Positions 2,554 through 34,787 of a stretch of 64,000 nt of DNA are shown here, one piece after another. How positions within the stretch are numbered: the stretch's first letter is position 1; every line of letters starts with the position of its first letter. The stretch is from the NCBI GenBank assembly GCA_046290225.1, contig JBKAGE010000034.1, positions 343,598-407,597 of the forward strand, written 5' to 3'. Both the position numbers and the translations under genes were made by a program. The notes beneath the pieces are model-generated. The model was not told the origin of the DNA, did no database searches, and saw nothing but the letters and a program-made list of their open reading frames with translations. This stretch comes from Bradymonadia bacterium. GTDB taxonomy: Bacteria > Myxococcota_A > Bradymonadia > UBA7976 > UBA1532.

Positions 2554-4103
2554 AGAAGAAGACGCTCACGGGACGCATCAGCGGCTTCTTCCGCCGCGCA
2601 CCACAAGGTGAGGAGGAGCCGCCCTCCGAGCCCGCACCGAACGATGAGCCTCTGCCTCCGGCCACGGAGGGCGTCAACCTGCTCCTCATCAGTGATCTGC
2701 ACCTCGGGGAGGCGTGCAAGGATCACAGCCGAATCGAATATCTGAAGCGCAGCGCCACCCTCGACGAGGACCTCTGTCGGTTCCTCGAGCACCACACCCA
2801 CAATCGTCTCGACGGGCGGCCGTGGCGTCTGGTCCTCGCAGGTGATCTGCTCGACTTCCTGCAGGTGACCATCGTGCCCACCGGCGCCTCTGATGAGGCC
2901 AGACGATTTGGTCTGGGCACGACGGAGGAAGAGTCCGCCTGGAAGCTCTCCAGGCTGATGGAGCGTCACCGCCGTGCCTTTGTCTATCTCGCTGGCTTCG
3001 TCGGCGCCGGGCACCAGCTCGACATCATCCAGGGCAACCATGACGAAGAGCTGTTCTGGCCCAAAGTGCAGGAGACCCTCGTGGCGGGGCTCAAGCAGAT
3101 CTACTTCGGCGGCGAGGACACCGCGGAGGTCACCCCCGAGGATTTCGAATCTCGAGTGCGGTTTCATCCGTGGTGCTTGCACATTCCCGGCGTGCTCTAT
3201 GTCGAGCATGGCCATCGATATGATCCGTACTGCGCCACGCCCCCACAGCTCTGCCCCTTGCGTCCCGGTGACGAGCGCGAGCTGACCCAACCGCTCAGCG
3301 GACTGGCCATTCGTTACTTCGCCAACCTGGAGCGGGGGTTCCAGACCCACGACAAGGAGCACTGGGGCCTGAGAGAGTACAGCGCCTACTATCGCTCTCG
3401 GGGCTGGGGCCACCTGATCGACGTATGGCATCGCTATGTGCACTTCCTGAAGCAGGCCCATCAGTACTATCGGGATCATGGCAGCCTCAGCAGCGAAGCG
3501 GCACACGCGCAACATCAGGCCGCCCTCGTAGAGGTGGCCGAGGCAGAGCAGATCACCCTCGCTGATCTTCAGGCCCTCGACACCCTCGGCGCCCCCTCGG
3601 TGACCAGTGACGCCTTCGGGTTGTACGCCGGGGTGGGCATGGCCGAGTGGACCGCCATCTCCGGCGCGCTGTTCGTGGCTCTGCTGATGTTGCTGACCCC
3701 CTGGTCCTGGTGGGTCGAGTTGGGCCTCATCGGCGCAGGCATCTTTGCTGGGGTGCGCTGGGTCCGATACGCACGAGGGCGGTTCCCCCTCGCTGCCCCC
3801 ATCTACCTCAGCGATGCAGCGGAGCAGATCGGCGCCCGGTTGAAAGTCCCGGTCGTAGCCATGGGCCACACCCACAAACCCCTGCGACGACGCCAGGCCT
3901 TCGATCACCGGGCCTTCTACGTGAACACGGGCTCGTTCCTGGCGCCTCATGGACCGCACCACGGCCCCACTGAGCCCTGCACTTGTAGAACCACCTTCGT
4001 GGTGATCCCTCATGCGGGGGCGCATGACCGGCCCTCACCCAAACTGTATCGCTGGTGTGTGGTGAATCAGAAGCCTGCGCCCTTCAAGGTCAAGCGCGGC
4101 TGA
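2550..4103 (+). CDS. calcineurin-like metallophosphoesterase with C-terminal transmembrane segments
   Basis: phosphoesterase motifs LLISDLHLGE, LAGDLLDF, IQGNHDEE, GHTHKP; two hydrophobic helices near aa 390-430; GTG start overlapping the upstream stop. Confidence 0.65.
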   Translation: MKKKTLTGRISGFFRRAPQGEEEPPSEPAPNDEPLPPATEGVNLLLISDLHLGEACKDHSRIEYLKRSATLDEDLCRFLEHHTHNRLDGRPWRLVLAGDLLDFLQVTIVPTGASDEARRFGLGTTEEESAWKLSRLMERHRRAFVYLAGFVGAGHQLDIIQGNHDEELFWPKVQETLVAGLKQIYFGGEDTAEVTPEDFESRVRFHPWCLHIPGVLYVEHGHRYDPYCATPPQLCPLRPGDERELTQPLSGLAIRYFANLERGFQTHDKEHWGLREYSAYYRSRGWGHLIDVWHRYVHFLKQAHQYYRDHGSLSSEAAHAQHQAALVEVAEAEQITLADLQALDTLGAPSVTSDAFGLYAGVGMAEWTAISGALFVALLMLLTPWSWWVELGLIGAGIFAGVRWVRYARGRFPLAAPIYLSDAAEQIGARLKVPVVAMGHTHKPLRRRQAFDHRAFYVNTGSFLAPHGPHHGPTEPCTCRTTFVVIPHAGAHDRPSPKLYRWCVVNQKPAPFKVKRG

Positions 4104-4118
4104 GACTGGCCTGAGCGG

Positions 4119-4697
4119 TCACGCCTCGAAGGCCGCCCTGAGCACCCCGTCGAGTCGGCTCACGGCCTCTCTCGCCGTCTCCTTGCGCCCCATGGTCATG
4201 GGGATGCCGGCCCCAACTCGATGGGTGACGCCGGTGACCAGCGGGCCAGGACCACGACGCAGGCTGCGCCTCACGGGTACGATGGGCACATCGCACTTGA
4301 ACGCCACCTGCACCAGCCCCTCGCCCTCACCGAGTTGAGCCAGCACAGCGTGCCCGGCCATCAGCCGACGACGGATCACATAGTGGGAAGCAGGCAGCAC
4401 CCCGAGGGCGCCGAGGTGCGGGTTGAGCGCCGGCCATCGCAGCCAGCGCTCGTCGAGCACGAGGCGTGGCCAGGGTCGGCCCGCCCGGCGCAGGGCCGAG
4501 GCCATCGCCAGGGCATCGAGGGGGCTCGTCCCTGCAGGCAGGACCCAGAGGGCCCCCGCTGAGGGCCAGCGCTCAGGCCACTCCACACGATGGCGGCTCG
4601 CTCGGAGGGCGCCGGAGAGCAAGGGGCTCAGGCGATCGAGGGCGCTGGGGTCAAAAGCGTCAGGGGCGTCTGGGGGAAACAGTTCGGCAGTCTTCAT
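4119..4697 (-). CDS. hypothetical protein
   Basis: ORF starting at internal Met (MKTAELF...) 20 nt downstream of the kinase gene stop; no motif recognised. Confidence 0.4.
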   Translation of the reverse strand: MKTAELFPPDAPDAFDPSALDRLSPLLSGALRASRHRVEWPERWPSAGALWVLPAGTSPLDALAMASALRRAGRPWPRLVLDERWLRWPALNPHLGALGVLPASHYVIRRRLMAGHAVLAQLGEGEGLVQVAFKCDVPIVPVRRSLRRGPGPLVTGVTHRVGAGIPMTMGRKETAREAVSRLDGVLRAAFEA

Positions 4698-4716
4698 GGC
4701 CCGGGTGGGATGCAGT

Positions 4717-5898
4717 TCAGTTGTGTCCGGTCGCAGCGTCGGGATCGAGAAAACGACCCGTGGCCTCATTGGACTCGTGCACGCCGGTGTCTTCATCGTG
4801 CACGTGGGTCTCGTTCGTGTGGGCTGCTCTTTCGAGCGACGCGAGCGTCTCGAGACCTGGCAGAGGGCCGGTCATGTCCACGAGGCGGGTGTAATTCACC
4901 CTCAGGCCTGTGGGCGTGTCGTCATCTGAGGGGCCCACGAGATCGAACTCTTGATAGCGCTCGTCGTGCTCCATGCGCTCACGGGCGAAAATACGGCTGA
5001 GCGTACGCCCCAGGTCGAGGGGCTTGAAGCGCGGGAACCGATCCCGCCGGTAGACCTCGAGCTCGTCTGCGAAAGCCTCGGCAGTGGCGTATCGTGCCTC
5101 TGCATCCTTCGCCAGAGCCCTGGCGAGGATGCGCTCGAGGGTGGCATCGAGGCCAGGGAGATCGGCGACGCCGGGGTGAGGCTGATGGCGAATCGCCTCC
5201 ATGACCTCGACGTCTTCAGATCCCTTGAAGGGGGTCTCGCCCGTGAGGGTTTCGAAGAGCACGGCCCCTGCTGCGAAGACATCGGAGCGCCGGTCGAGCC
5301 GTCGCCCCATGGTCTGCTCCGGGCTCATGTAGCGCACCTTGCCCTTGATGACCCCCACCCGGGTCTTCACCCGGTTGAGGCGCCCCTTGGCGATGCCGAA
5401 GTCGATGAGCTTCACCTCGCCGCGGTAGCTGACCATGATGTTCGACGGGCTGAAGTCGCGGTGCACGATGTCGAGGGGCTCACCGGTGAGGTCGACCTGC
5501 TCGTGGGCACAATGCAAGCCCCTCAGCGCCTGTTCCACCGCCCACAAGCCGTACTCCACGGGCCAGGGCATCTCCCGAGCCCGGCAGCGACGCAGCGCAG
5601 ATCGTAGATCTACCCCTTCGACGTACTCCATCACCAGGAAGTACTCGTCTTCGAGGTGGCTGAACTCGTACGTGCGGGTGATGTTGGGGTGATCGAAGAG
5701 GCACGTGATCTTGGCCTCGTCAATGAGCATGTCGATGAACTCTTGATCGGCGGTGTAGAACGACAGCAACCGCTTGATGGCCACAGCCTCGAGCTCACCG
5801 TCGGCGTCGCGCCGGGCGGCACGATAGATCTCCGCCATTCCCCCAGAGGAGATCCGGTAGAGCAAACGATAGGGTCCAAGTGATCGAGCGCGGCGCAC
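4717..5898 (-). CDS. serine/threonine protein kinase
   Basis: Hanks kinase motifs: GxGxxAxIY glycine loop (SSGGMAEIYRA), AIKRL, HRDFSPSNIMV, DFGIAKG, SPE. Confidence 0.85.
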   Translation of the reverse strand: MRRARSLGPYRLLYRISSGGMAEIYRAARRDADGELEAVAIKRLLSFYTADQEFIDMLIDEAKITCLFDHPNITRTYEFSHLEDEYFLVMEYVEGVDLRSALRRCRAREMPWPVEYGLWAVEQALRGLHCAHEQVDLTGEPLDIVHRDFSPSNIMVSYRGEVKLIDFGIAKGRLNRVKTRVGVIKGKVRYMSPEQTMGRRLDRRSDVFAAGAVLFETLTGETPFKGSEDVEVMEAIRHQPHPGVADLPGLDATLERILARALAKDAEARYATAEAFADELEVYRRDRFPRFKPLDLGRTLSRIFARERMEHDERYQEFDLVGPSDDDTPTGLRVNYTRLVDMTGPLPGLETLASLERAAHTNETHVHDEDTGVHESNEATGRFLDPDAATGHN

Positions 5899-6065
5899 GA
5901 GGGAAGGCTAGCTTGCCCGGCCCGCAGTTGCAATCCACCATACCCGGTGATAAGAGCTGCTCAGGGCAGCGCCTGGGCTGATGGTGCCGCGCATAAAGCC
6001 GCTCTCAGGGGTGTTTGACGAGATCGAGCCCCCACCATCACCGCGCTGACGAAGAGGAGATCACC

Positions 6066-13645: not shown

Positions 13646-15430
13646 ATGCCCAGTCTGGTGCAACACGGCCGCAGCGCCCCCTCCCCGTTGGTGAGGCGGC
13701 TGACCTCCATTGGCTCTGATCCCGAGAACGACATCGTCGTCGATGCAGACGGCGTACTCAGCACCCACGCTCACGTGAAGCTCGAGAGCGGCCGCTTCCT
13801 GCTGGTGGCTCTGCATCGCAGCGCCCCGGTGATGGTGAATGGTCGCAAGATCAAGAAGCACGTGCTCGAGCATGGTGACGAGATCGCCATCGGCGCCGCG
13901 GGTCTGCGTTTCAACCTCTGGGACGAGCCCGGGACGCAGGAGCGGGATCAGGACGAGGGCCCCGGCGGAGACGTCATGGGGGCCTACAAACGGCTGGTGA
14001 TGTTCTCCACCACACTGGCCGAGCGCCTCGACGTGCCCACTCTGCTCGAAGCCCTCATGGACGAGATCATCGCCCTCACCGGGGCCGACAAGGGCTTCTT
14101 GCTGCTCATGGAAGAGGCACCGAAGGTGGTGACCGCCCGCAACCTCAAGCGGGAGAACGTCGCCGCCACCCTCAACCAGCTCTCGGACAGCATCATCAGG
14201 CGGGTCATCGAGGGTCGACAGCCCATCATCGTGAGCGATGCCCTCCACGACACCGAGTTCAAGAGCAGCGTCTCCGTGGTGCAGCTCAGGCTGTGCTCCG
14301 TGATGTGCGTGCCTCTGGTGTTCAGAGGTCAACTGCTCGGACTCATCTACGTGGGCAACGACAATGTGGTGAATCTATTCGACGAGCACTCTCTCGAGCA
14401 GCTCACGGTCTTCGCCACGCAGGCTGCGCTCCTGCTCGATCACGCCATTCAGCGCGACGCCCTTCAGCGGGACAACAAGGCGCTGCGCACAGCGCTCGAG
14501 GGCAGCCGCTTCGGATCCATCATCGGCGCCTGTGATCCGATGCGCGGTGTGTTCCGCACCTTGGAGAAGGTCGCAGTCACTGACATCAACGTGCTCGTGC
14601 TCGGTGAAACAGGCACCGGTAAAGAGCTCATCGCCCGGGAGCTGCACCGTCGCTCCGCCCGCAAGGATGGCCCTTTCGTGGCAGTGAACTGCGGAGCGCT
14701 GCCTGCGGATCTCATGGAATCCGAGCTCTTCGGCCACCGCCGCGGGGCCTTCACCGGCGCAGTGGAGGACAAAAAGGGCCGATTCCAGGCGGCACACAAG
14801 GGCACACTGTTCCTCGACGAGATCGGCGAGATGCCTGCAGCGTTGCAGGTGAAGTTGCTCCGAGCGATCCAGGATCGGACGGTGACCCGAGTGGGCGACA
14901 ACCGCCCTCAGCCGGTGGACATCCGCCTGGTGGCGGCGACCCACGTCGACCTGCAGGAGGCGATCAGAGAAGGTCGGTTCCGCGAGGATCTCTACTACCG
15001 CCTGAACGTGGTGAGCATCACGCTCCCGGCCCTGCGGGAGCGTGACGAAGATGTGGTGCTCATCGCCCGCTACCTGTTGGAGCGGTACGCCAAGGAATAC
15101 GATCGCAAGCTCAAGGGCTTCACCTCCGATGCCCTCATCGCCATGCGCAAGCACGCCTGGCCCGGCAACATCCGGGAGTTGGAGAACCGCCTGAAGAAGG
15201 CGGTGGTCCTCGCCGAGGGCACTCAGCTGGGCCCAGATGATCTCGATTTGGGCGAAGAGGCCCTTGCAGATCGCATCCTGCCCCTCGCTGAAGCCAAAGA
15301 GGCGTTTCAGCGCCGCTACATCGACCAGGTGCTGGCCCTGAACAACCACAACCGCACCAAGACCGCCCGCGATCTGGGCGTCGATCCCCGGACCATCTTC
15401 CGCCACCTGGAGAAGACCCGCGGCGAGTGA
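13646..15430 (+). CDS. sigma54-dependent transcriptional activator with N-terminal FHA domain, GAF domain, AAA+ domain and C-terminal HTH
   Basis: FHA-like N-terminus (RLTSIGSDPENDIVVD...HAHVKLESGRF); Walker A GETGTGKE; GAFTGA signature (HRRGAFTGA); Fis-type HTH at the C-terminus. Confidence 0.9.
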   Translation: MPSLVQHGRSAPSPLVRRLTSIGSDPENDIVVDADGVLSTHAHVKLESGRFLLVALHRSAPVMVNGRKIKKHVLEHGDEIAIGAAGLRFNLWDEPGTQERDQDEGPGGDVMGAYKRLVMFSTTLAERLDVPTLLEALMDEIIALTGADKGFLLLMEEAPKVVTARNLKRENVAATLNQLSDSIIRRVIEGRQPIIVSDALHDTEFKSSVSVVQLRLCSVMCVPLVFRGQLLGLIYVGNDNVVNLFDEHSLEQLTVFATQAALLLDHAIQRDALQRDNKALRTALEGSRFGSIIGACDPMRGVFRTLEKVAVTDINVLVLGETGTGKELIARELHRRSARKDGPFVAVNCGALPADLMESELFGHRRGAFTGAVEDKKGRFQAAHKGTLFLDEIGEMPAALQVKLLRAIQDRTVTRVGDNRPQPVDIRLVAATHVDLQEAIREGRFREDLYYRLNVVSITLPALRERDEDVVLIARYLLERYAKEYDRKLKGFTSDALIAMRKHAWPGNIRELENRLKKAVVLAEGTQLGPDDLDLGEEALADRILPLAEAKEAFQRRYIDQVLALNNHNRTKTARDLGVDPRTIFRHLEKTRGE

Positions 15431-27643: not shown

Positions 27644-27789
27644 ACCTCGACACAGTCGATGCTGTGAACCGCCGTTGACGCCCCGTCGAATCCCGCCTGA
27701 AAACTGGCCTTTTCAGATCTGGCACGGCCCCTGCTTTATCCCCTGGCGTCCGCAATCGAGACCCACACTGAGACGGGAGAGCACCTCAC

Positions 27790-29373
27790 ATGGCCCACGC
27801 GACACTCAAAGCCCTCATGCCTCTGGCCCTCGCCACCCTCACTGCCTGTGGCGCAATGGATGATGATGCCTACGACAGCGGGGATCAGGGCGGGGCCTAC
27901 TATCCCCCGGCACCGAACAACGGCTATGTCCCGCCGCAAGAGACCCCGCCCAGCGGGGATCCTCAGTCCGGGGAGCAATATGAGCACTACGGCCACAACC
28001 CCTTCGTGGACGCTGAAGAGGACAACCTCGCCACCTTCGCCATCGACGTGGACACTGCGAGCTACACGCTCACCCGCAGGAACATCAACAATGGCTGGCT
28101 GCCGGATCCTGCTTCGATCCGTGTGGAAGAGTTCATCAACTACTTCAAGTACGCCGACGAGGGCCCTGCCCCCTCCGACGCTCGCCCCTTCGCCATTCAC
28201 ATGGAGGTGGCGCCCTCGTTGTTCGGTGACAGCGCTGGCGGCCAGGCCGCGGACGATGTGGAGCGCTCGCTGATGCGGGTGAACATTCGCGGCATCGATC
28301 TCGAAAACGAAGAGCGCAAGTCCGCGAACCTCGTGTTCCTGCTCGACGTCTCCGGCTCCATGTCCAGCCCCGACAAGCTGGGTCTCGTGCAGTACAGTAT
28401 GCGACGTCTCACGGAGACATTGCGCCCCGACGACACCATCAGCATCGTGGTCTATGCGGGCGCCGACGGCGTGGTGCTCCCCCCCACCCCGGTCTCCAAC
28501 GCTGGCCGCATCATCGATGCTGTCGAGAGCCTGCGACCTGGTGGCGGGACCAACGGCGAGGCGGGCATTCGCACGGCCTACCGCCTCGCTCAGGAAGCCT
28601 ACAAGAACGACGGCATCAACCGGGTGATCCTGTGTACCGACGGCGACTTCAACGTGGGCCTCACCGGCGACGCCCTGGTGGGGCTCATCGAGGAGAAGCG
28701 CGACGAGGGTGTCACCCTCACGGTCCTCGGCTTCGGCAGCGGGAACTACAACGATCGCACGATGGAGCAGCTGGCCAACAAGGGGAACGGCAACTACGCG
28801 TACATCGACCAGATCGCCGAAGCGGAGCGGGTGCTCGTCGAAGGCATCACCGGCACACTGCAGGTCATCGCCAAGGACGTGAAGATCCAGGTGGAGCTGA
28901 ACAGCGACGCTGTGGCCCGATACCGGCTCATCGGGTACGAAAACCGCGACATCGCCGACGACCAGTTCCGCGACGACGCGGTGGACGCTGGGGAGATCGG
29001 CGCCGGCCACCAGGTGACGGCCTACCTCGAGCTGGAGCTACAGCCCAATGTGCGGGCCGACGCCACCCTCGACCTGGCCACGGTCCGGGTGCGCTACAAG
29101 GCCCCTGATGCCACGGCGGACGACGCCGCCCTCGAGGAGGTGGCCCGTACGCTGGAGATGGGGGCCCATCGACGGGACTTCGAGGACGCCAGCGACGACT
29201 TCCAGTTCGGCGCAGCCGTAGTGGAGTTCGCCGAGGTCCTCCGGGAGAGCCCGCACAGCGTCGGTCGCCGCCTCGGTGAGCTTCAGAGCGTAGCCCGCCG
29301 CGCTGCCGGCGACGACGCACGACGCGCCGAGTTCATCGAGCTCGTAGAGCGTGCCGCCACCCTCACCCGCTGA
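27790..29373 (+). CDS. von Willebrand factor A domain lipoprotein (YfbK-like, vWA plus DUF3520-type C-terminus)
   Basis: lipobox LALATLTACG; MIDAS motif LLDVSGSMS; conserved N-terminal FAIDVDTASYT and C-terminal VRVRYKAP.. regions. Confidence 0.8.
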   Translation: MAHATLKALMPLALATLTACGAMDDDAYDSGDQGGAYYPPAPNNGYVPPQETPPSGDPQSGEQYEHYGHNPFVDAEEDNLATFAIDVDTASYTLTRRNINNGWLPDPASIRVEEFINYFKYADEGPAPSDARPFAIHMEVAPSLFGDSAGGQAADDVERSLMRVNIRGIDLENEERKSANLVFLLDVSGSMSSPDKLGLVQYSMRRLTETLRPDDTISIVVYAGADGVVLPPTPVSNAGRIIDAVESLRPGGGTNGEAGIRTAYRLAQEAYKNDGINRVILCTDGDFNVGLTGDALVGLIEEKRDEGVTLTVLGFGSGNYNDRTMEQLANKGNGNYAYIDQIAEAERVLVEGITGTLQVIAKDVKIQVELNSDAVARYRLIGYENRDIADDQFRDDAVDAGEIGAGHQVTAYLELELQPNVRADATLDLATVRVRYKAPDATADDAALEEVARTLEMGAHRRDFEDASDDFQFGAAVVEFAEVLRESPHSVGRRLGELQSVARRAAGDDARRAEFIELVERAATLTR

Positions 29374-30796
29374 GTGCATACACCTCGCCCCTCACCCTCC
29401 CTACGCCACCTTCTGATTGCACAGTCAAGGTGTCGAAGGGGGCTGAGGGCATCACAAGCGCGCTCAACCCTCGCCGCCCACACAGCGAGAACACCTCGAC
29501 CGAGCCGTGATCGATGATGAGCCTGATGCCATGGCTCGCCTGCCCCGGCGCTTCGCAGAGTGTCGGGCCCTCCCGCTGAGCGAACACCGTGGAGCGGTCG
29601 AGAGACATCCCCTCAAATCCCACACGGATCACCACCCGCTCCCCCGCAACACCAGAGAGTGTCACCACCACAGTGAGATCGTCTCGCTCCGGCAGCCAAT
29701 CCACGCTCACATCAGCCACTTCGGGCAGACTCATCTTCAATGTGCTCTCGTTCAGAGGCTTCCAGGGCAGTTCCTGATGCGCACCTCGAAACGCCTCGAG
29801 CTGCTCTGCGGGCAAAGCAGACAGCCGCAAACCCTCAGGTGTCTCTTTCAGTGACAGAGTGCGCGGCGTCGCCATGGCGCCTCGCCATGTCGTGGCCGGT
29901 ACCGTCCGGGCGTACTTCCAGTTGTTCATCCAGCCCAGCATCAACACCGACGTCGATGGTGTCGGAGCCCCAGACCACGTGACGGCTGCATAGTGGTCCG
30001 GTCCGTAGTCCAACCAGAGTGGTTGCTCGATCGGCTCCGCCACGAACCGCTCACCATCAAAGTCACCTACGAAATATTGCGTGCCTGAGCCTGAGTTGGG
30101 GCCACCATCGTCCAGGCTGACCAGCATGATCCAGCGGGTGCGGCCCTCGTATTCGAGGGGGAACACATCAGGGCACTCCCACACGCCTCCATGGGCGCCG
30201 AGGCCTTCACCGAAGTCCGAGCTGTGGTGCCAGCGCCGCAGATCCCGCGAGACCCAAATCTGTACCCGATCCCCAGCGGCGAGCACCATCACCCATCGAC
30301 CCGTGGGCCGGTGCCAGCGCACCTTCGGATCTCTGAAGTCCTTCAGGCCTGGGTTGGGGATGATGGGATTGTCGGGCCATTCACACCAGGTCTGCCCCTT
30401 GTCGGTGCTGTACGCCAGGCTCTGGACCTGATGCCCCTCGGCGGTGGAGTGCGTAAACAACGCAACGATCGAAGGTGCGCCGACCCCAAGTGTGTCGTGG
30501 GCATCAAAGACAGCACACCCGGAGAAAACCATGCCCAGTTCTGGGTGAGGCTTCAGCGCCGGCGGGTGGTATTGCCACCTGACAAGATCGGTCGAAGTGG
30601 CGTGGCCCCAATGAATGTCCCCCCACGAGAGGCCGTTCGGGTTGGCTTGGTAGAAGAGGTGATACACCCCATCGACGTACACCATGCCATTGGGATCGTT
30701 CATCCACCCCACCTCAGGGGTGAAATGGATGATGGGGCGGAGGGGGATGTAGGGCATGTGCTCGCTCTGCGTGGTGAGAGACATCGGGTCTACCAC
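29363..30796 (-). CDS. glycoside hydrolase family 32 (beta-fructofuranosidase/levanase-like)
   Basis: GH32 signature HFTPEVGWMNDPNGMVY...YHLFYQ; RDPKV and EC motifs further in. Confidence 0.8.
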   Translation of the reverse strand: MVDPMSLTTQSEHMPYIPLRPIIHFTPEVGWMNDPNGMVYVDGVYHLFYQANPNGLSWGDIHWGHATSTDLVRWQYHPPALKPHPELGMVFSGCAVFDAHDTLGVGAPSIVALFTHSTAEGHQVQSLAYSTDKGQTWCEWPDNPIIPNPGLKDFRDPKVRWHRPTGRWVMVLAAGDRVQIWVSRDLRRWHHSSDFGEGLGAHGGVWECPDVFPLEYEGRTRWIMLVSLDDGGPNSGSGTQYFVGDFDGERFVAEPIEQPLWLDYGPDHYAAVTWSGAPTPSTSVLMLGWMNNWKYARTVPATTWRGAMATPRTLSLKETPEGLRLSALPAEQLEAFRGAHQELPWKPLNESTLKMSLPEVADVSVDWLPERDDLTVVVTLSGVAGERVVIRVGFEGMSLDRSTVFAQREGPTLCEAPGQASHGIRLIIDHGSVEVFSLCGRRGLSALVMPSAPFDTLTVQSEGGVGRVRGEVYALSG

Positions 30797-30971
30797 GTCC
30801 GGCTCTGCAGGCGGAGCGCCCCAGCATATCCATTCAGATAAACCAACGCGCTAAACCAATCACACCAACATAACCAACTTGAATACGCTTCTCATCCCCA
30901 GCCATCAAACACGCAACAAAGCAATTACATAACAAGCACTTGCACTAAAACAACCTCATCCCCCGGAAAAA

Positions 30972-30988
30972 CTGGCACGCCCCCTGCT
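30972..30988 (+). promoter_or_regulatory. putative sigma54 (-24/-12) promoter: CTGGCACGccccCTGCT
   Basis: matches YTGGCACG-N4-TTGCW with correct spacing and one mismatch (CTGC for TTGC); located about 45 nt upstream of the first tRNA-like gene. Confidence 0.45.
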
Positions 30989-31034
30989 CTAGCCTCAGAG
31001 CGCCGACAGAGAGGCACCTGCTCAGCGCAGACAA

Positions 31035-31151
31035 CGAGGCGTAGCTCAGCCAGGGAGAGCGCCCGCTGTTGAAAAATGGTGTCCGACTGTCTCGACGTCT
31101 TACTTCGCTTTGGGGGCGGGAGGTCGCAGGTTCGAATCCTGCCGTCTCGCA
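31035..31151 (+). ncRNA. tRNA-like RNA (tRNA-Pro-derived) with a ~43-nt insertion at the 5' side of the anticodon loop; candidate Y-RNA-like tRNA mimic
   Basis: 7-bp acceptor CGAGGCG/CGTCTCG, D arm GCTCAGCCAGGGAGAGC, T arm GCAGGTTCGAATCCTGC, anticodon stem CCCGC/GCGGG flanking the insert, then a TTTGGGG loop identical to the tRNA-Pro(UGG) loop. Confidence 0.6.
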
Positions 31152-31223
31152 GTGTGCGCTGAGCAGGTGTCTCTCTGTTGGCCATTGGAGAAACCGGAAG
31201 AAGTTGCTGTTCGGCCCATGCAT

Positions 31224-31332
31224 CGAGGTGTAGCTCAGTCTGGTAGAGCGCTTGATGATGATGTCCGACTGCCTTGATGTCTTACTTCGCTTTGGGTGCG
31301 AGAGGTCGCAGGTTCGAATCCTGCCACCTCGA
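31224..31332 (+). ncRNA. tRNA-like RNA with a ~38-nt insertion in the anticodon arm (same conserved motif); candidate Y-RNA-like tRNA mimic
   Basis: acceptor CGAGGTG/CACCTCG (perfect), D arm GCTCAGTCTGGTAGAGC, T arm GCAGGTTCGAATCCTGC; insert contains GTCCGACTG...TGTCTTACTTCGC followed by TTTGGGT. Confidence 0.6.
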
Positions 31333-31382
31333 TGGATGCGCCGAGCAGGATCTTCCTTCGGGTCGTGGGGCTGCGCCTCTTC

Positions 31383-31489
31383 GGGGGTGTAGCTCAGTGG
31401 TGAGAGCGCTATTACAGATTTCCGACTGTCTGGATGTCTTACTTCGACTGTCAATCGAGAGGTCGTGGGTTCGAATCCCACCGCCCCCG
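31383..31489 (+). ncRNA. tRNA-like RNA with a ~40-nt insertion in the anticodon arm (same conserved motif); candidate Y-RNA-like tRNA mimic
   Basis: acceptor GGGGGTG/CGCCCCC (one GU pair), D arm GCTCAGTGGTGAGAGC, T arm GTGGGTTCGAATCCCAC; insert TTCCGACTGTCTGGATGTCTTACTTCGACTG. Confidence 0.55.
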
Positions 31490-31553
31490 CTCAGCGCAGC
31501 CCCACGACATTTTCGTACGACGCAGTGACTCGAGATCGATGCGCCGTGCTCAT

Positions 31554-31627
31554 CGGAGTGTAGCTCAGCCTGGGAGAGCCGACGGTTTGGGGCCGTAAGG
31601 TCGCAGGTTCAAATCCTGCCACTCCGA
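31554..31627 (+). tRNA. tRNA-Pro (anticodon UGG)
   Basis: 74-nt cloverleaf: acceptor CGGAGTG/CACTCCG, D arm GCTCAGCCTGGGAGAGC, anticodon loop TTTGGGG, T arm GCAGGTTCAAATCCTGC; no encoded CCA. Confidence 0.8.
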
Positions 31628-31733
31628 CAGTGTTTTTCAGATCCTGCCCTTCGGGCGCCCCTCCGCTCCTACGGCTTCGCCTCCGTCGGCTGCGGGGCGT
31701 CCGGCCGCAGGCCGGACAGGATCGCGAGTGTTT
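31628..31733 (+). repeat. structured ~100-bp repeat unit A (multi-hairpin, UUCG tetraloop, GUCCGGCC-GCAG-GCCGGAC hairpin)
   Basis: three near-identical copies in the window (also 31726-31830 and 32061-32165); outer stem GATCCTG/CAGGATC. Confidence 0.75.
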
Positions 31734-31830
31734 TTAGGATCTTGCCCTTCGGGCGCCCCTCCGCTCATACGGCTTCGCCTCCGTCGGTTACGGGGCGTCC
31801 GGGCACAGGCCGGACAAGATCGCGAGCTCA
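31726..31830 (+). repeat. structured ~100-bp repeat unit B (tandem to unit A)
   Basis: about 90% identical to unit A; same hairpin layout. Confidence 0.75.
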
Positions 31831-31860
31831 CGCTCGCTGGTTCAGCCAAGGCGTTTTGAC

Positions 31861-31975
31861 TGCGCCGTGATGGTTCGGGTGAGCTCATCCACTCAGGCTT
31901 CCGACTGACTGGGTGTCTTACTTCGACTGAAACTCCAAGAATGTGGGTGGGCTCTCTCGAGCCATCACGGCGCTG
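31861..31975 (+). ncRNA. stand-alone copy of the conserved CCGACTG-N6-TGTCTTACTTCGACTG motif enclosed by a perfect 12-bp terminal stem (GCGCCGTGATGG/CCATCACGGCGC); candidate small structured RNA
   Basis: direct sequence observation; same motif as in the three tRNA-like insertions. Confidence 0.45.
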
Positions 31976-31986
31976 TCAATACTCAT

Positions 31987-32060
31987 CGGGGTGTAGCTCA
32001 GCCTGGAAGAGCGCACGGTTCGGGTCCGTGAGGCCGCAGGTTCAAATCCTGCCACCCCGA
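31987..32060 (+). tRNA. tRNA-Pro (anticodon CGG)
   Basis: 74-nt cloverleaf: acceptor CGGGGTG/CACCCCG, anticodon stem CACGG/CCGTG, loop TTCGGGT, T arm GCAGGTTCAAATCCTGC. Confidence 0.85.
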
Positions 32061-32165
32061 CAGTGTTTTTCAGATCCTGCCCTTCGGGCGCCCCTCCGCT
32101 CCTGCGGCTTTGCCTCCGTCGGCTACGGGGCGTCCGGCCACAGGCCGGACAGGATCGCAGGCTTC
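32061..32165 (+). repeat. structured ~100-bp repeat unit C (third copy, again directly 3' of a tRNA-Pro)
   Basis: about 92% identical to unit A. Confidence 0.75.
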
Positions 32166-32217
32166 GCCTGCTGCCCATTTCCGCGTGCTGTGGTGACAAC
32201 GGCACTCCACCTGACCA

Positions 32218-32340
32218 CAGATGACTGTTGGTTTGGGTGCATCAACCCGACCAGGAGTCGGCACTTTGTGTGTCAACTCTTAGATGTCCAACTGACCGGG
32301 TGTCTTACTTCGACTGATGCATTCAAACGAGCAGTCATCT
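32218..32340 (+). ncRNA. second stand-alone copy of the conserved motif (GTCCAACTGACCGGGTGTCTTACTTCGACTG) enclosed by a 9-bp terminal stem (AGATGACTG/CAGTCATCT); candidate small structured RNA immediately upstream of rsr
   Basis: direct sequence observation; internal hairpin TTGGGTGCATCAACCCGA. Confidence 0.45.
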
Positions 32341-32360
32341 GTATCGGGTGCATTTGACTC

Positions 32361-34169
32361 GTGACTGAGCGGAATACACCCGCTCGACTGGAGGATGACA
32401 TGACTCGCGTGTTGAAGACTCAGAACATGAAGCAGTGGCTGACCCAGGGCTGGATCAGCACCTACGAGGGCGCGCCTGCCTACGACTACAGCGACACGCA
32501 CCCGCTCATCCACTTGGTGTTCACCATGGGCTCGGCCCTGTTCACCGACGGCTTCTATGAGACTGAGCAGGCCCAGGTCCGCACCTTCGCACAGTCCCTG
32601 CTCCGGGCGGCCCAGGTCGACCCCAAGTTTCCCTGGCAGTACGCCGCGTGGATGCGTGACCCCAAGCGCGGCAAGGGCAACCGGATCCAGGGCTCCCTGG
32701 CGCCGGCGCTGCTCGACGCCCTGTTGCCCAAGGATCTGCGAGACGAGGCAATCGTCGCCCAGTACACCGCCCTGGCTCTGAGCCATCGGCCCGATGACGT
32801 CACCGCATGCCTGACGCACTACGAGCGGCTTGGCCTCGGCCGCCCCTCAAAGGCGGTGCGGCAGGGCATGGCGCTGGCTCTGACGAAGTTCGACGAGTAC
32901 CAGCTGCTCAAGTACACCGGCAGCCGCCAGAAGGTACGCCTGTGCGATGTGATCTTGATGGTGCGCGAAGAGCTCGAGGCCCTCAGTGATGGTGGCGCTC
33001 TGGCGCTGGCTGTCGGTCGGTACCTGCACGCCCCCACACGATCACGGAAGGATCACCCCTCCCTCGATCGCATGCACCTGACCCGAGCGCGCCGCGCGCT
33101 CTGGGCGATGCCGCCCTCTGGGGCGCTGTCGCCGGAGCTTCCGCTGCAGCTCGAGGCCTCACGGGTGACCTGGGAGCAGGTGCTCAGCCACTTCGGTGCG
33201 GGCAATGATCCGAGCGTGAAGCGCCGCCGTAAGGCAGTGTGGTCGGCGCTGCTCTCCGTGCGCGGGCTGGTACCCGACACTGCTTTGCTGCGCAACGTGC
33301 GCAACATGGTGGAGGCGGGTGTCTCTGCGGATCAACTCACCGAGGTGGTCTCTCAGCGCCGGTTCGACAAGGTCTGGCCGCACCAGGTCTACGCGGGCTA
33401 CAAGGCCGCGCCTCAGCTCGGCGCCCACTTCGAGGCGATCTTCAGCCGCACCCTCGATCGGCTCCCCCTCGGGCGCCATCTGGGCATCGCTGACGCCTCG
33501 GGCTCGATGATGGTGAAGGTGGGTGGCTCGAAGGGCTCGCTCAACGCCATGGATGTGGCGCTGTGCTTCACTGCCATCATGAGCGAGAGCTCCGGCCTCG
33601 GCGCCTCGTTCTCTGATGGCCAGTTCGCGCAGTGGTCTGGCGGCAAGTGCCTCTCGATCGCTGCCCGTGGGCAGCACGAGGGCGCCCTGAAGTTCGCTCA
33701 GAACCCGGCCCTGCGCCGAGGTATGGGCGGCACTCAGGTCTTCGGTGCCGTGATGGAGCTGATCAAGTGGCTGGTGGACCACCCAGAGGTGACCCCGCCG
33801 GACTGCTTGTGGTTCTTCTCTGATATGCAGTTCCACCCGGCGGCGGGCGCGCTCAAGAGCCAGCCCAACGTCATCACGGAGCTGTCGAAGATCCACGGCG
33901 TGTCACTGCAAGGCCCGCCCCTCGAGGCGGCCCTGAAGCTCTACCGGAAGGCCATCGGTCCGGTGGACGTGGTGCTCTGGAATCTGGCTGCCTATGCGCC
34001 TGTGCCGGTGCCCGCGGACATGGAAGGTGTGCTCTTGGTGAGCGGCTTCGACACCAACACTTTCGACACCGTCAGCCGCTGGCGACAAGGGCTGCCGATG
34101 TCCGGTGAGGGTGCGCCGTCGGTGGAGGAGAGCCAGGAGATCGTTCTGGATAAGATCCGCGCGTTCTGA
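32361..34169 (+). CDS. rsr: Ro60-like ribonucleoprotein (TROVE domain plus C-terminal vWA domain with MIDAS), Rsr homologue
   Basis: TROVE-like N-terminal block LIHLVFTMGSALFTDGFYETEQ (compare Ro60 LCFGSEGGTYYIKEQ); C-terminal vWA with MIDAS LGIADASGSM; size and architecture fit Ro60/Rsr. Confidence 0.7.
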   Translation: MTERNTPARLEDDMTRVLKTQNMKQWLTQGWISTYEGAPAYDYSDTHPLIHLVFTMGSALFTDGFYETEQAQVRTFAQSLLRAAQVDPKFPWQYAAWMRDPKRGKGNRIQGSLAPALLDALLPKDLRDEAIVAQYTALALSHRPDDVTACLTHYERLGLGRPSKAVRQGMALALTKFDEYQLLKYTGSRQKVRLCDVILMVREELEALSDGGALALAVGRYLHAPTRSRKDHPSLDRMHLTRARRALWAMPPSGALSPELPLQLEASRVTWEQVLSHFGAGNDPSVKRRRKAVWSALLSVRGLVPDTALLRNVRNMVEAGVSADQLTEVVSQRRFDKVWPHQVYAGYKAAPQLGAHFEAIFSRTLDRLPLGRHLGIADASGSMMVKVGGSKGSLNAMDVALCFTAIMSESSGLGASFSDGQFAQWSGGKCLSIAARGQHEGALKFAQNPALRRGMGGTQVFGAVMELIKWLVDHPEVTPPDCLWFFSDMQFHPAAGALKSQPNVITELSKIHGVSLQGPPLEAALKLYRKAIGPVDVVLWNLAAYAPVPVPADMEGVLLVSGFDTNTFDTVSRWRQGLPMSGEGAPSVEESQEIVLDKIRAF

Positions 34170-34319
34170 TCGCACAGTCTGATCTCACAGTACGCTCCTG
34201 GTCACGTGACGGCCACATCGCCCATCGAAGCGGTGTGGCCGTTCTCTTTTCGAAAAATGTGCCGTGAGACATGACCAAACCACGCAACCCTTCGCTTCGT
34301 TCCGGGCCGTATCCTGTGA

Positions 34320-34787
34320 ATGCCGATGCACAGCGGCGCGTCCAAGGGCCCTCAACTCACGGTCTGGAGGATTACAGCAAGTGAAGCCAAACGGCTTGCT
34401 CGCGATGTCATGCTGTCGAACATACTCAATTTTCTGTTCAACATCCTGGTATGGGTCATCGTGAAGGTGGTGCAGGCGGCCATCCTGTTCCTGCCCCTGT
34501 TCACGCTCTATGTCATCCTCATCGTCCTGTTCAGCGACACTGACCGCACCGTGGCGCTCAAGCTGGGCCGGGATTTGCCTCCTTCTACAATGGAAGCGAA
34601 CCTCAAGGCGATGACTGGCCCCTTGTACCCCCTGGCCCGTTTCATCCTTTGGGGGATCATCGTCGGGCTCGCCTACTCATTCATCGCCGCCTTCGTCCGC
34701 GCAATCAGGGGGTCCGGCCCTCACGAGGACGCCACAGCGTCTGATGTGCCTCAAGAACAACCCAACAAGCTGGACTCAGGGCTCTGA
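34320..34787 (+). CDS. small integral membrane protein, function unknown
   Basis: three hydrophobic helices; lower-GC context. Confidence 0.45.
   Translation: MPMHSGASKGPQLTVWRITASEAKRLARDVMLSNILNFLFNILVWVIVKVVQAAILFLPLFTLYVILIVLFSDTDRTVALKLGRDLPPSTMEANLKAMTGPLYPLARFILWGIIVGLAYSFIAAFVRAIRGSGPHEDATASDVPQEQPNKLDSGL

Follow-up and report, generated by a model that had tools for sequence, protein, structure and literature searches.

The 64,000-nucleotide (nt) stretch of Bradymonadia bacterium DNA analyzed here (assembly GCA_046290225.1, contig JBKAGE010000034.1, positions 343,598 to 407,597 of the forward strand; hereafter the window) contains, directly upstream of a gene encoding a protein with a TROVE domain, a sequence module repeated five times and partly embedded in tRNA-like elements, which raises the question of what this module is for and what the RNAs carrying it have to do with the neighboring gene. 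Ro60 proteins and their Y RNAs constitute a conserved RNA-surveillance module. Our analysis indicates that the motif is probably the docking site of the adjacent Ro60-like protein, and that the five units bearing it are its Y-RNA equivalents, three of them in the form of tRNA mimics. We infer physical binding, RNA processing, and downstream function from genomic association and analogy. Because the motif would be the docking site of this protein, the RNAs would be the Y-RNA equivalents of a divergent Ro60 clade, for which neither an RNA partner nor an earlier description of these RNAs was found in Rfam or in the literature searched.

The pattern CCRACTG-N7-GTCTTACTTCG had exactly five matches in the 64-kb window, all on the forward strand (31083, 31265, 31422, 31901, and 32288), and none in shuffled sequence. 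An independent covariance model, trained solely on module copies from other organisms, recovered exactly these five sites with 23.7-38.8 bits, the runner-up scoring 8.8 bits, while a model that included the window copies scored them at 42-50 bits with a runner-up of 8.5 bits; no further copy was detected by the covariance models on either strand of the window. The copies span 31078-32312 on the strand of the TROVE gene, all within 1.3 kb. The five-copy repeat is confirmed, far beyond chance, and the positions agree to within 2 nt with those of an initial annotation made from the sequence alone. The motif of about 30 nt described there is indeed conserved, and the conserved block is longer than reported, comprising 36 nt with 75-89% identity (family D2 of the repeat analysis).

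Each module consists of an 8-bp hairpin, P2 (5' strand GRGNNCCG, loop ACYRNC of 6-7 nt, 3' strand UGGNNGYC), followed by the tail UUACUUCG. In the first copy (31078-31107, forward strand like the others), the 5' strand of P2 occupies 31078-31085, the loop 31086-31091, the 3' strand 31092-31099, and the tail 31100-31107. The second, third, and fourth copies lie at 31260-31289, 31417-31446, and 31896-31925, with tails at 31282-31289, 31439-31446, and 31918-31925, and the fifth, a CCAAC variant, is located at 32283-32312 with its tail at 32305-32312. An alignment of 31 module copies showed changes on both sides in six of the eight P2 pairs, and 86.7% of the cells were paired compared to 20-62% with a slid partner as control. 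The third pair is usually a conserved G.G opposition, with G-C in a minority. Covariation, which the initial annotation had proposed to examine, supports the hairpin, and what had been described there as a variable spacer is actually the loop and the 3' strand of this hairpin. Other pairings were considered and set aside: a Y-RNA-like bulged-C pairing of UC(C)GA with UCGA was considered first, but covariation favors the local hairpin P2; a pseudoknot between the loop GAC and either GUC or the tail is not favored either, GUC varying (CUC, GCC, CCC) while GAC shows no compensating change. Since single-sequence minimum free energy (MFE) folds gave inconsistent local structures for the module, these were not relied on. 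The tail is invariant save for a variable third base and is the most invariant segment of the module.

The gene downstream of the array (32400-34169, forward strand), preceded by a GGAGG ribosome-binding site at 32390-32394, 6 nt upstream, encodes a 589-aa protein with a TROVE HEAT-repeat ring and a vWA domain. It matched Pfam TROVE with 28.4 bits (cut-off 23) and also DUF7788, and is identical to an NCBI entry named 'TROVE domain-containing protein' from a Bradymonadia metagenome-assembled genome (MAG). The MIDAS (metal-ion-dependent adhesion site) motif DxSxS of the vWA domain (D365, S367, S369) is invariant in the protein family. When a family profile built from 26 members was compared with solved structures, the best match was the Thermus-phage Ro60 homologue (9KOP/9L5Y; E = 3.6e-21), and human and Xenopus Ro60 were matched with E = 1.8e-10 and E = 1.7e-9, respectively. 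The AlphaFold model of the 589-aa protein had a mean predicted local distance difference test (pLDDT) of 84 and a predicted template modeling (pTM) score of 0.79. Its ten best Foldseek matches were all Ro60/TROVE structures, including 1yvp, 2i91, 9nep, and 9kop, with template modeling (TM) scores of 0.56-0.70 and 15-17% identity over alignments of about 590 columns, i.e., the full protein length. Judged from the predicted model, this is thus a ring protein of the Ro60 kind that has diverged strongly.

Protein-guided scanning of genomes and metagenomes provided at least 57 loci (designated L with a number), in which the association between module and gene could be followed. Covariance model R1, run on both strands of 520,580 bases (the window plus 58 loci), gave 37 matches at 39-58 bits, all on the strand of the gene and within about 2.6 kb upstream of a TROVE homologue, and none at an unrelated site. 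Where Bradymonadales and other Myxococcota MAGs encode proteins of at least 50% identity, one to four modules lie upstream of the gene; the linkage is kept in all type-1 (hairpin-form) loci, and up to five copies occur per locus. The L007 modules precede the gene by 1.7-2.5 kb. L009 bears a weak, divergent candidate copy (16.7 bits, E 0.05) in a tRNA-like element (Rfam tRNA, 54 bits) located downstream of the gene. Additionally, a TGGCAY-N7-GC element is found 26-98 nt upstream of the first module unit in 12 of 17 loci, at a background of 0.047 per kb, and two further loci show one-position variants of it by eye. The neighboring protein genes differ between loci and only the TROVE gene co-occurs consistently; no linked rtcBA, PNPase, nuclease, endonuclease, or ligase genes were found at the module loci, and PADLOC gave no match there to known defence systems. 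As the neighbors differ, the conserved unit is the promoter, the module RNAs, and the TROVE gene. The suggestion of the initial annotation that the repeat is a protein- or RNA-binding module gains support from the TROVE gene that follows the array, from the Ro60-like fold predicted for its product, and from the way the module travels with this gene.

These data also bear on a dispersed repeat of the repetitive extragenic palindromic (REP) or miniature inverted-repeat transposable element (MITE) type, or mere common ancestry of duplicated tRNA genes, neither with a function of its own, as the source of the five copies. Two of the module units in the window, A and B, share 86% identity over 92 nt, and the tRNA-Pro block of the array occurs in duplicate (93%), so that part of the similarity within the window reflects recent duplication. 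Nevertheless, the initial annotation had itself named copies scattered over the genome at unrelated loci as the sign of such a repeat; there are no others in the 64 kb, none at unrelated sites in 520 kb, and the module is conserved across unrelated scaffolds and phyla with compensatory changes. A repeat without function is largely refuted and, in our estimate, very improbable. Among viral contigs, 18 matches to the exact pattern were all chance matches within coding sequence. A protein-based scan of the viral collection returned one real locus, L079, which is identical to L041. Here, on an AT-rich contig classed as viral (IMG/VR UViG_3300025323_000511), a module-bearing tRNA-like RNA (L041 4546-4588, equal to L079 2546-2588) is situated 425 nt upstream of a TROVE homologue with 33% identity; the system may be phage-borne too.

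In more distant homologues, at 30-40% identity, the sequence YUACUUCG occurs about 50 nt before the start codon, in a permuted version of the motif. The hosts include Myxococcus, Corallococcus, Pyxidicoccus, Melainabacteria/Obscuribacter, and several unbinned contigs. The context reads 5'-AYCU-[8 nt]-UACUUCR-(17-39 nt, often a hairpin)-[8 nt]-RAC, and the two 8-mers are complementary in every case while differing by lineage, for example GGCGCCCC/GGGGCGCC, GGCACCCC/GGGGUGCC, GAGACUCU/AGAGUCUC, and UAAACUCU/AGAGUUUU. In this helix, whose 3' strand was located by complementarity, 97.3% of the cells are paired compared to 42-54% when slid, and six of eight pairs show double changes. Position by position, it corresponds to the window motif with the hairpin loop opened and the other end closed: both forms share strand a (RGRGNNCC) followed by GAC, and strand b placed after YCU and before UACUUCG. 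The helix and its four single-stranded flanks are thus kept through permutation and change of host, as a protein footprint predicts. The element that the protein would recognize can accordingly be described as a helix of 8-9 bp, with RGRGNNCC followed by GAC on one strand and GGNNSYCY on the other, the latter after YCU and before the single-stranded UACUUCG. No Rfam family matched either the hairpin or the permuted form. A related arrangement was observed in L023 and L043-L047 (Ktedonobacter type), where the forward strand carries a hairpin with GAAGUAGGAG about 100-150 nt upstream of the TROVE homologue; on the opposite strand, the same hairpin presents an 8-bp helix flanked by UACUUCU and AAC, which is the permuted motif, apparently transcribed divergently from the gene.

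The position of the permuted motif calls for weighing a cis-acting operator or attenuator that, bound by the TROVE protein or another factor, would mainly regulate the downstream gene, in which case the upstream RNAs would be leader structures instead of stable trans-acting RNAs. Besides the location some 50 nt before the start codon, the Myxococcus-type closing helix is followed by GAC and a U-run in a terminator-like arrangement, and in the window the last module unit, E, ends 57 nt 5' of the TROVE ATG in what is apparently one transcript from one promoter. However, a single operator would suffice, yet loci hold up to five copies; the hosts of the module are elaborate and conserved (tRNA-like RNAs with D and T arms, and in one lineage a 3.2-kb 23S-like RNA), and neither the distance of the modules from the gene in L007 nor the weak candidate downstream of it in L009 is what an operator would lead one to expect. 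Regulation in cis as the whole explanation is unlikely in our judgment, and it is compatible with the Y-RNA reading, the two not being exclusive.

Another alternative concerns the tail, which could serve for RNA-RNA pairing or as the site of some other protein, with the TROVE gene as a co-regulated partner and not the direct binder. Pyrimidine-rich single strands are common seed regions of small RNAs, and the tail combines the strongest conservation of the module with the lack of a covarying internal pairing partner. On the other hand, a conserved complementary sequence was not noticed in the loci, although no systematic search for one was made; the flanks at both ends of the helix (GAC and YCU) are kept on permutation, which is more in line with a protein footprint in three dimensions than with a linear seed; and the TROVE gene is the sole gene that co-occurs consistently. 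We regard this possibility as quite unlikely, and return to the docking-site reading to examine the RNAs on which the module is displayed.

Each of the five units of the window is bracketed by an inverted repeat, with arms of 40, 37, 15, 47, and 28 nt that are 79-100% complementary. Unit A (31002-31182) has duplex arms at 31002-31041 and 31143-31182 (inverted repeat I2, 40 nt, 85%) around a tRNA-like body at 31035-31150 with a Pro UGG anticodon, matched by the Rfam tRNA model with 47.3 bits and a 48-nt insert. Unit B (31194-31361), also Pro UGG, has its duplex (I3) at 31194-31230 and 31325-31361 around a body at 31224-31332, and unit C (31362-31508) a perfect 15-bp duplex (I5) at 31362-31376 and 31494-31508 around a body at 31383-31489, with the anticodon loop CUGUCAA (Asp GUC) at 31448-31454; all units are on the forward strand. 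On the Rfam tRNA model, units A-C scored 47-52 bits, with 44-48 nt in the place of the anticodon loop and with the D and T arms kept. The bracketing repeats imply that the leader and trailer of these three units prolong the acceptor stem, which becomes a long duplex. A tRNA body is lacking in units D and E. Unit D (31846-31989) is a rod-like RNA with 47-nt arms (31846-31892 and 31943-31989; I1) that are 79% complementary, an MFE of -76.9 kcal/mol (z -9.6), and the module at its tip; matches of miRNA families to it in Rfam were spurious, owing to the long hairpin. Unit E (32217-32342) has a basal stem of 28-nt arms (32217-32244 and 32315-32342; I4) that are 86% complementary (MFE z -5.8), a side hairpin, and the module in a multi-way junction. 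The perfect 12-bp and 9-bp stems that the initial annotation saw around the fourth and fifth copies are present, as the tops of these longer, imperfect inverted repeats. Rfam searches of the window and 19 loci, at gathering and E-value thresholds, returned tRNA only, plus large-subunit (LSU) rRNA in L020.

The site at which the module enters the tRNA-like units was determined by numbering them from the T arm, an anchor adopted because ARAGORN, when run on all deletion variants, was so permissive that it gave no useful information. In this numbering, the final G (or C) of the tail is tRNA nt 30 (or 31), and the full 7-nt loop and the 3' stem strand come next. The insertion point is 29/30 or 30/31 across the tRNA-like units, and 29/30 in the three units of the window. 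Without the module, the anticodon arms of units A and B read CCC/GC-UUUGGGG-GCGGG and CUU/GC-UUUGGGU-GCGAG (slash at the insertion point), a perfect stem-loop being restored in both; the arm of unit C, CUA/GA-CUGUCAA-UCGAG (Asp GUC, discriminator G), is restored with a single mismatch or a shift by 1 nt. Of the 27 tRNA-like units, 16 (17 by eye, counting L005) have a loop of 7 nt with U33, R37, and pairs 30-40 and 31-39, and the anticodons of the loop-keeping units comprise UGG, GUC, UCC, UUC, ACG, UAG, UUG, CGU, and GUU. Since a full anticodon loop follows the module, the loop is not replaced; the module is inserted into, or branches off, the 5' strand of an anticodon stem that is intact apart from it. 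The first three copies had been placed between the halves of a tRNA anticodon stem; they do lie inside tRNA-like elements, but the insertion is in the 5' strand, with the complete loop 3' of it. In some units the identity of the body agrees with the anticodon, as in unit B (C1-G72, A73, UGG) and L024b (Gly), while in others they disagree: L004 5790-5895 and L005 2541-2650 have near-identical Pro-like bodies with ACG and GUC loops, respectively, and L006a (L006 5697-5803) has a Leu anticodon (UAG) on a class-I body. It seems that the anticodon arm and the module travel or change together as a cassette, irrespective of the tRNA body.

In one lineage, the module resides in an RNA of a different kind. 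L020 bears, upstream of the TROVE gene, a full-length LSU-rRNA-like RNA of 3195 nt (2741-5935; Rfam 2188 bits) that ends 65 nt before the ATG and has no 5S gene. A second MAG (L084) has the same region with a single difference over 12.5 kb, and the matching metagenome contig is L031. The module (4914-4955) forms an insert of 41 nt where the helix-69 loop begins on its 5' side. Conserved bases are replaced throughout the functional centers of this RNA (G2251A, G2252A, G2061C, A2451C, C2452A, U2584A, A2602U, U2554A, U2555A, G2655A, G2661A, and A1067G), the mutations affecting the peptidyl-transferase centre, the P-loop, the A-loop, and the sarcin-ricin loop. With universally conserved functional bases replaced, the RNA is no working 23S rRNA, and judging by its sequence, the same module appears to have an rRNA-derived, catalytically dead host here.

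Both settings invite comparison with introns. Anticodon arms of tRNAs and the helix-69 region of 23S rRNA are classic intron sites, archaeal non-canonical tRNA introns occur at 29/30 or 30/31, and bacterial group I introns are located in anticodon loops. The module could accordingly be an intron-like or mobile insertion in real tRNA (and 23S) genes that is excised, the TROVE protein acting perhaps as a maturase or chaperone. Like an intron-containing tRNA gene, the units have an anticodon-arm insertion whose removal restores a canonical stem-loop, the cuts at 29/30 or 30/31 leave a canonical loop in the 16 units mentioned above, ARAGORN in intron mode called units A and B as tRNA-Pro(UGG) with 'introns' of 42 nt and 35 nt, and the L020 insert occupies the edge of the helix-69 loop. 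Unlike such genes, no bulge-helix-bulge was recognized by eye, an archaeal-type intron being set aside for this misfit in geometry, and, again by eye, the first 4 nt beyond the 3' boundary do not complement the beginning of the insert. With 32-45 nt, the insert is much too short for a group I or group II intron, and no Rfam intron or ribozyme family was found in the window or the loci. Furthermore, rods D and E and the permuted leader form also carry the motif, although they offer no exons to join; the spliced products of L004/L005 and L006a would not be normal tRNAs; the 23S host in L020 is catalytically dead; the leader-trailer duplexes block a free CCA end; and no endonuclease or ligase gene was found linked. 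An excised insertion appears distinctly improbable as an account of these units.

Upstream of unit A, a sigma-54-type promoter-like element, TGGCACGCCCCCTGCT (-24 GG / -12 GC), is present at 30973-30988 (forward strand), while no sigma-70-type promoter was predicted in 30700-34400. Downstream, a strong intrinsic-terminator-like hairpin with a 14-bp stem and a U-rich tail (34208-34252, forward strand) lies 3' of the TROVE open reading frame (ORF) and closes the operon. Default ARAGORN identified two ordinary tRNA-Pro genes only, UGG at 31554-31628 and CGG at 31987-32061, both on the forward strand and also found by Rfam; the former has neither a module nor a leader-trailer duplex, and neither of these two real tRNA genes has the 15-40-nt leader-trailer inverted repeats found in units A-C, which close off the acceptor end there and set these units apart from ordinary pre-tRNAs. 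Both are apparently co-transcribed with the module units, and the array reads as a single operon composed of the promoter, five module RNAs among two tRNA-Pro genes, the protein gene, and the terminator.

A number of further features were observed around the array. Both tRNA-Pro genes are followed by a GC-rich element about 100 nt long, the first by two tandem copies (31629-31830) and the second by one (32062-32172); the block of tRNA and GC-rich element is the one duplicated at 93%, and the element has a branched fold (z down to -4.4) and no Rfam match. A BLAST comparison of the region with phages gave tRNA-Pro similarity only. Ordinary tRNA genes are also located among module units elsewhere, namely in L007 (3600-3966; Asn, Pro-CGG, and Lys-CUU), L003 (1057-1129; Asn), and L053 (726-797; untyped), where they are interspersed as the two tRNA-Pro genes are in the window. 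In L025 (5870-5980) and L026, a degenerate tRNA-Pro-like element without a module is found downstream of two module units, with acceptor and T arms kept and the D and anticodon arms replaced by an unrelated GC-rich segment. Regarding regulation, a second sigma-54-type element, TGGCACGGCCCCTGCT (27720-27735, forward strand), is nearly identical to the one preceding unit A and precedes ORF 27790-29373, a vWA/YfbK-like gene that is syntenic in L025; this gene and the module operon may be co-regulated. The sole sigma-54 activator encoded in the window (13646-15430, forward strand) is of the FHA-GAF-AAA+-HTH type, is situated 16 kb from the operon, and is not RtcR-like, having no CARF domain.

Put together, the following scheme can be proposed for the docking-site reading. 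One sigma-54-type promoter would drive the whole array, i.e., the five RNAs with their protein-binding handle, the two tRNA-Pro genes, and the protein gene. In the window, the recognized helix would be closed as a hairpin and grafted on three tRNA-derived anticodon stems and on the tips of two rods, and the leader-trailer duplexes are probably processing sites or Y-RNA-like closing stems. As in the model of Rsr on YrlA, an L-shaped tRNA mimic would hold the protein at its anticodon end. The elbow, acceptor end, and anticodon loop of the mimic would then stay accessible to tRNA-binding factors, or else the ring would be brought next to them.

Several of the observations weigh against this scheme. 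Removal of the module restores a perfect anticodon stem-loop in most tRNA-like units, as an insertion or intron would. The tail lacks covariation and might just as well pair with another RNA or bind a different factor. The permuted motif is part of an mRNA leader and might be mainly an autoregulatory operator. Finally, the GNCGAAN0-1G signature of bacterial Y RNAs is absent, and the best Rfam match to YrlA, in the D-arm half of unit B, reached 16.8 bits against a threshold of 69.

If the scheme holds, its interest lies in several directions. It would provide a candidate RNA partner for a Ro60-like clade that is both divergent and widespread (Bradymonadales, Myxococcota, Melainabacteria, and others), together with a sharply defined recognition element of about 30 nt that appears with the same helix and flanks as a hairpin, as a permuted helix, in tRNA anticodon stems, and in a 23S-like RNA; were binding true, the module could be used as a compact natural RNA tag. 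The intact, apparently exchangeable anticodon loops and the dead 23S tagged at helix 69 would link Ro60-like proteins to strategies of tRNA and rRNA damage or decoy. A more far-reaching version, which we consider doubtful, holds that a portable handle tags mimics or spares of translation RNAs in a sigma-54-induced decoy, sensor, or repair operon, or else that the handle is removable in a mini-intron system. In the first case, a Ro60-like ring would be stationed beside the loops attacked by anticodon nucleases and ribotoxins, the tagged RNAs being tRNAs with swappable, intact anticodon loops and, in one lineage, a full-length dead 23S tagged at helix 69; in the second, this would be the first protein-dependent mini-intron system in bacteria.

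When compared to known systems, the units come closest to the bacterial Y RNAs, which are encoded beside rsr and have the Ro60 site GNCGAAN0-1G in a stem that the RNA builds from its 5' and 3' termini (PMC4201824; bioRxiv 10.1101/312249). In YrlA, that stem runs into the 'anticodon stem' of a circularly permuted tRNA mimic whose acceptor stem is closed (bioRxiv 10.1101/312249), and the Salmonella rsr-yrlBA-rtcBA operon is sigma-54 dependent (PMC7790460). Like YrlA (RF02553), the window RNAs are noncoding RNAs beside a Ro60-like gene, units A-C mimic a tRNA with D and T arms and an acceptor stem, the candidate Ro60 site is at the anticodon-stem end of the mimic, and the promoter is of the sigma-54 type. 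In contrast, YrlA has the T arm before the D arm, a closed acceptor stem, and no anticodon loop, whereas the order here is normal and the loop intact; its site is in the end-formed stem, while here it is an internal hairpin-plus-tail at nt 29/30 with the consensus RUCCGAC ... UUACUUCG; and YrlA has linked rtcBA, with none linked here.

Likewise, there are similarities to the Y RNAs of metazoans and Deinococcus, whose GGUCCGA strand is the main contact of Xenopus Ro60 (PMC4201824). This strand is literally present in L003, L006, L020, and L030, whereas the window has UGUCCGA or UUUCCGA; a G-U pair follows CC, and the permuted form builds its helix from 5'- and 3'-proximal strands. The differences are that their strand pairs with UUGACU and leaves a bulged C, whereas here the partner is UGGAYGUC and, according to covariation, the second C is paired, and that an invariant single-stranded tail, UACUUCG, is added. 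The resemblance to the Ro-binding strand put forward in the initial annotation consequently applies to the 5' strand, literal in several loci, and not to the partner, the tail being equally part of the motif. The Rfam Y RNA models gave no match in an all-family E-value scan of 30800-32500. A third parallel is the Thermus phage phiLo, whose Yrl1 and Yrl2 are Y-like RNAs upstream of a divergent Ro60, phiRo60 (PDB 9KOP, 9L5Y; PMC12135203). As in the window, these RNAs lie directly upstream of the gene for a divergent Ro60 homologue, but they are stem-bulge-stem RNAs with a CGAA motif and without a tRNA body. On these comparisons, the best reading is that the window RNAs would work like Y RNAs without being filed under either YrlA or the metazoan Y RNA family. 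The recurrence of one helix-plus-flanks motif in such different settings suggests that holding a Ro60 ring at a tRNA mimic's anticodon end is a solution arrived at independently of YrlA, which would strengthen the view that bacterial Ro60 depends centrally on mimicry of tRNA for its function.

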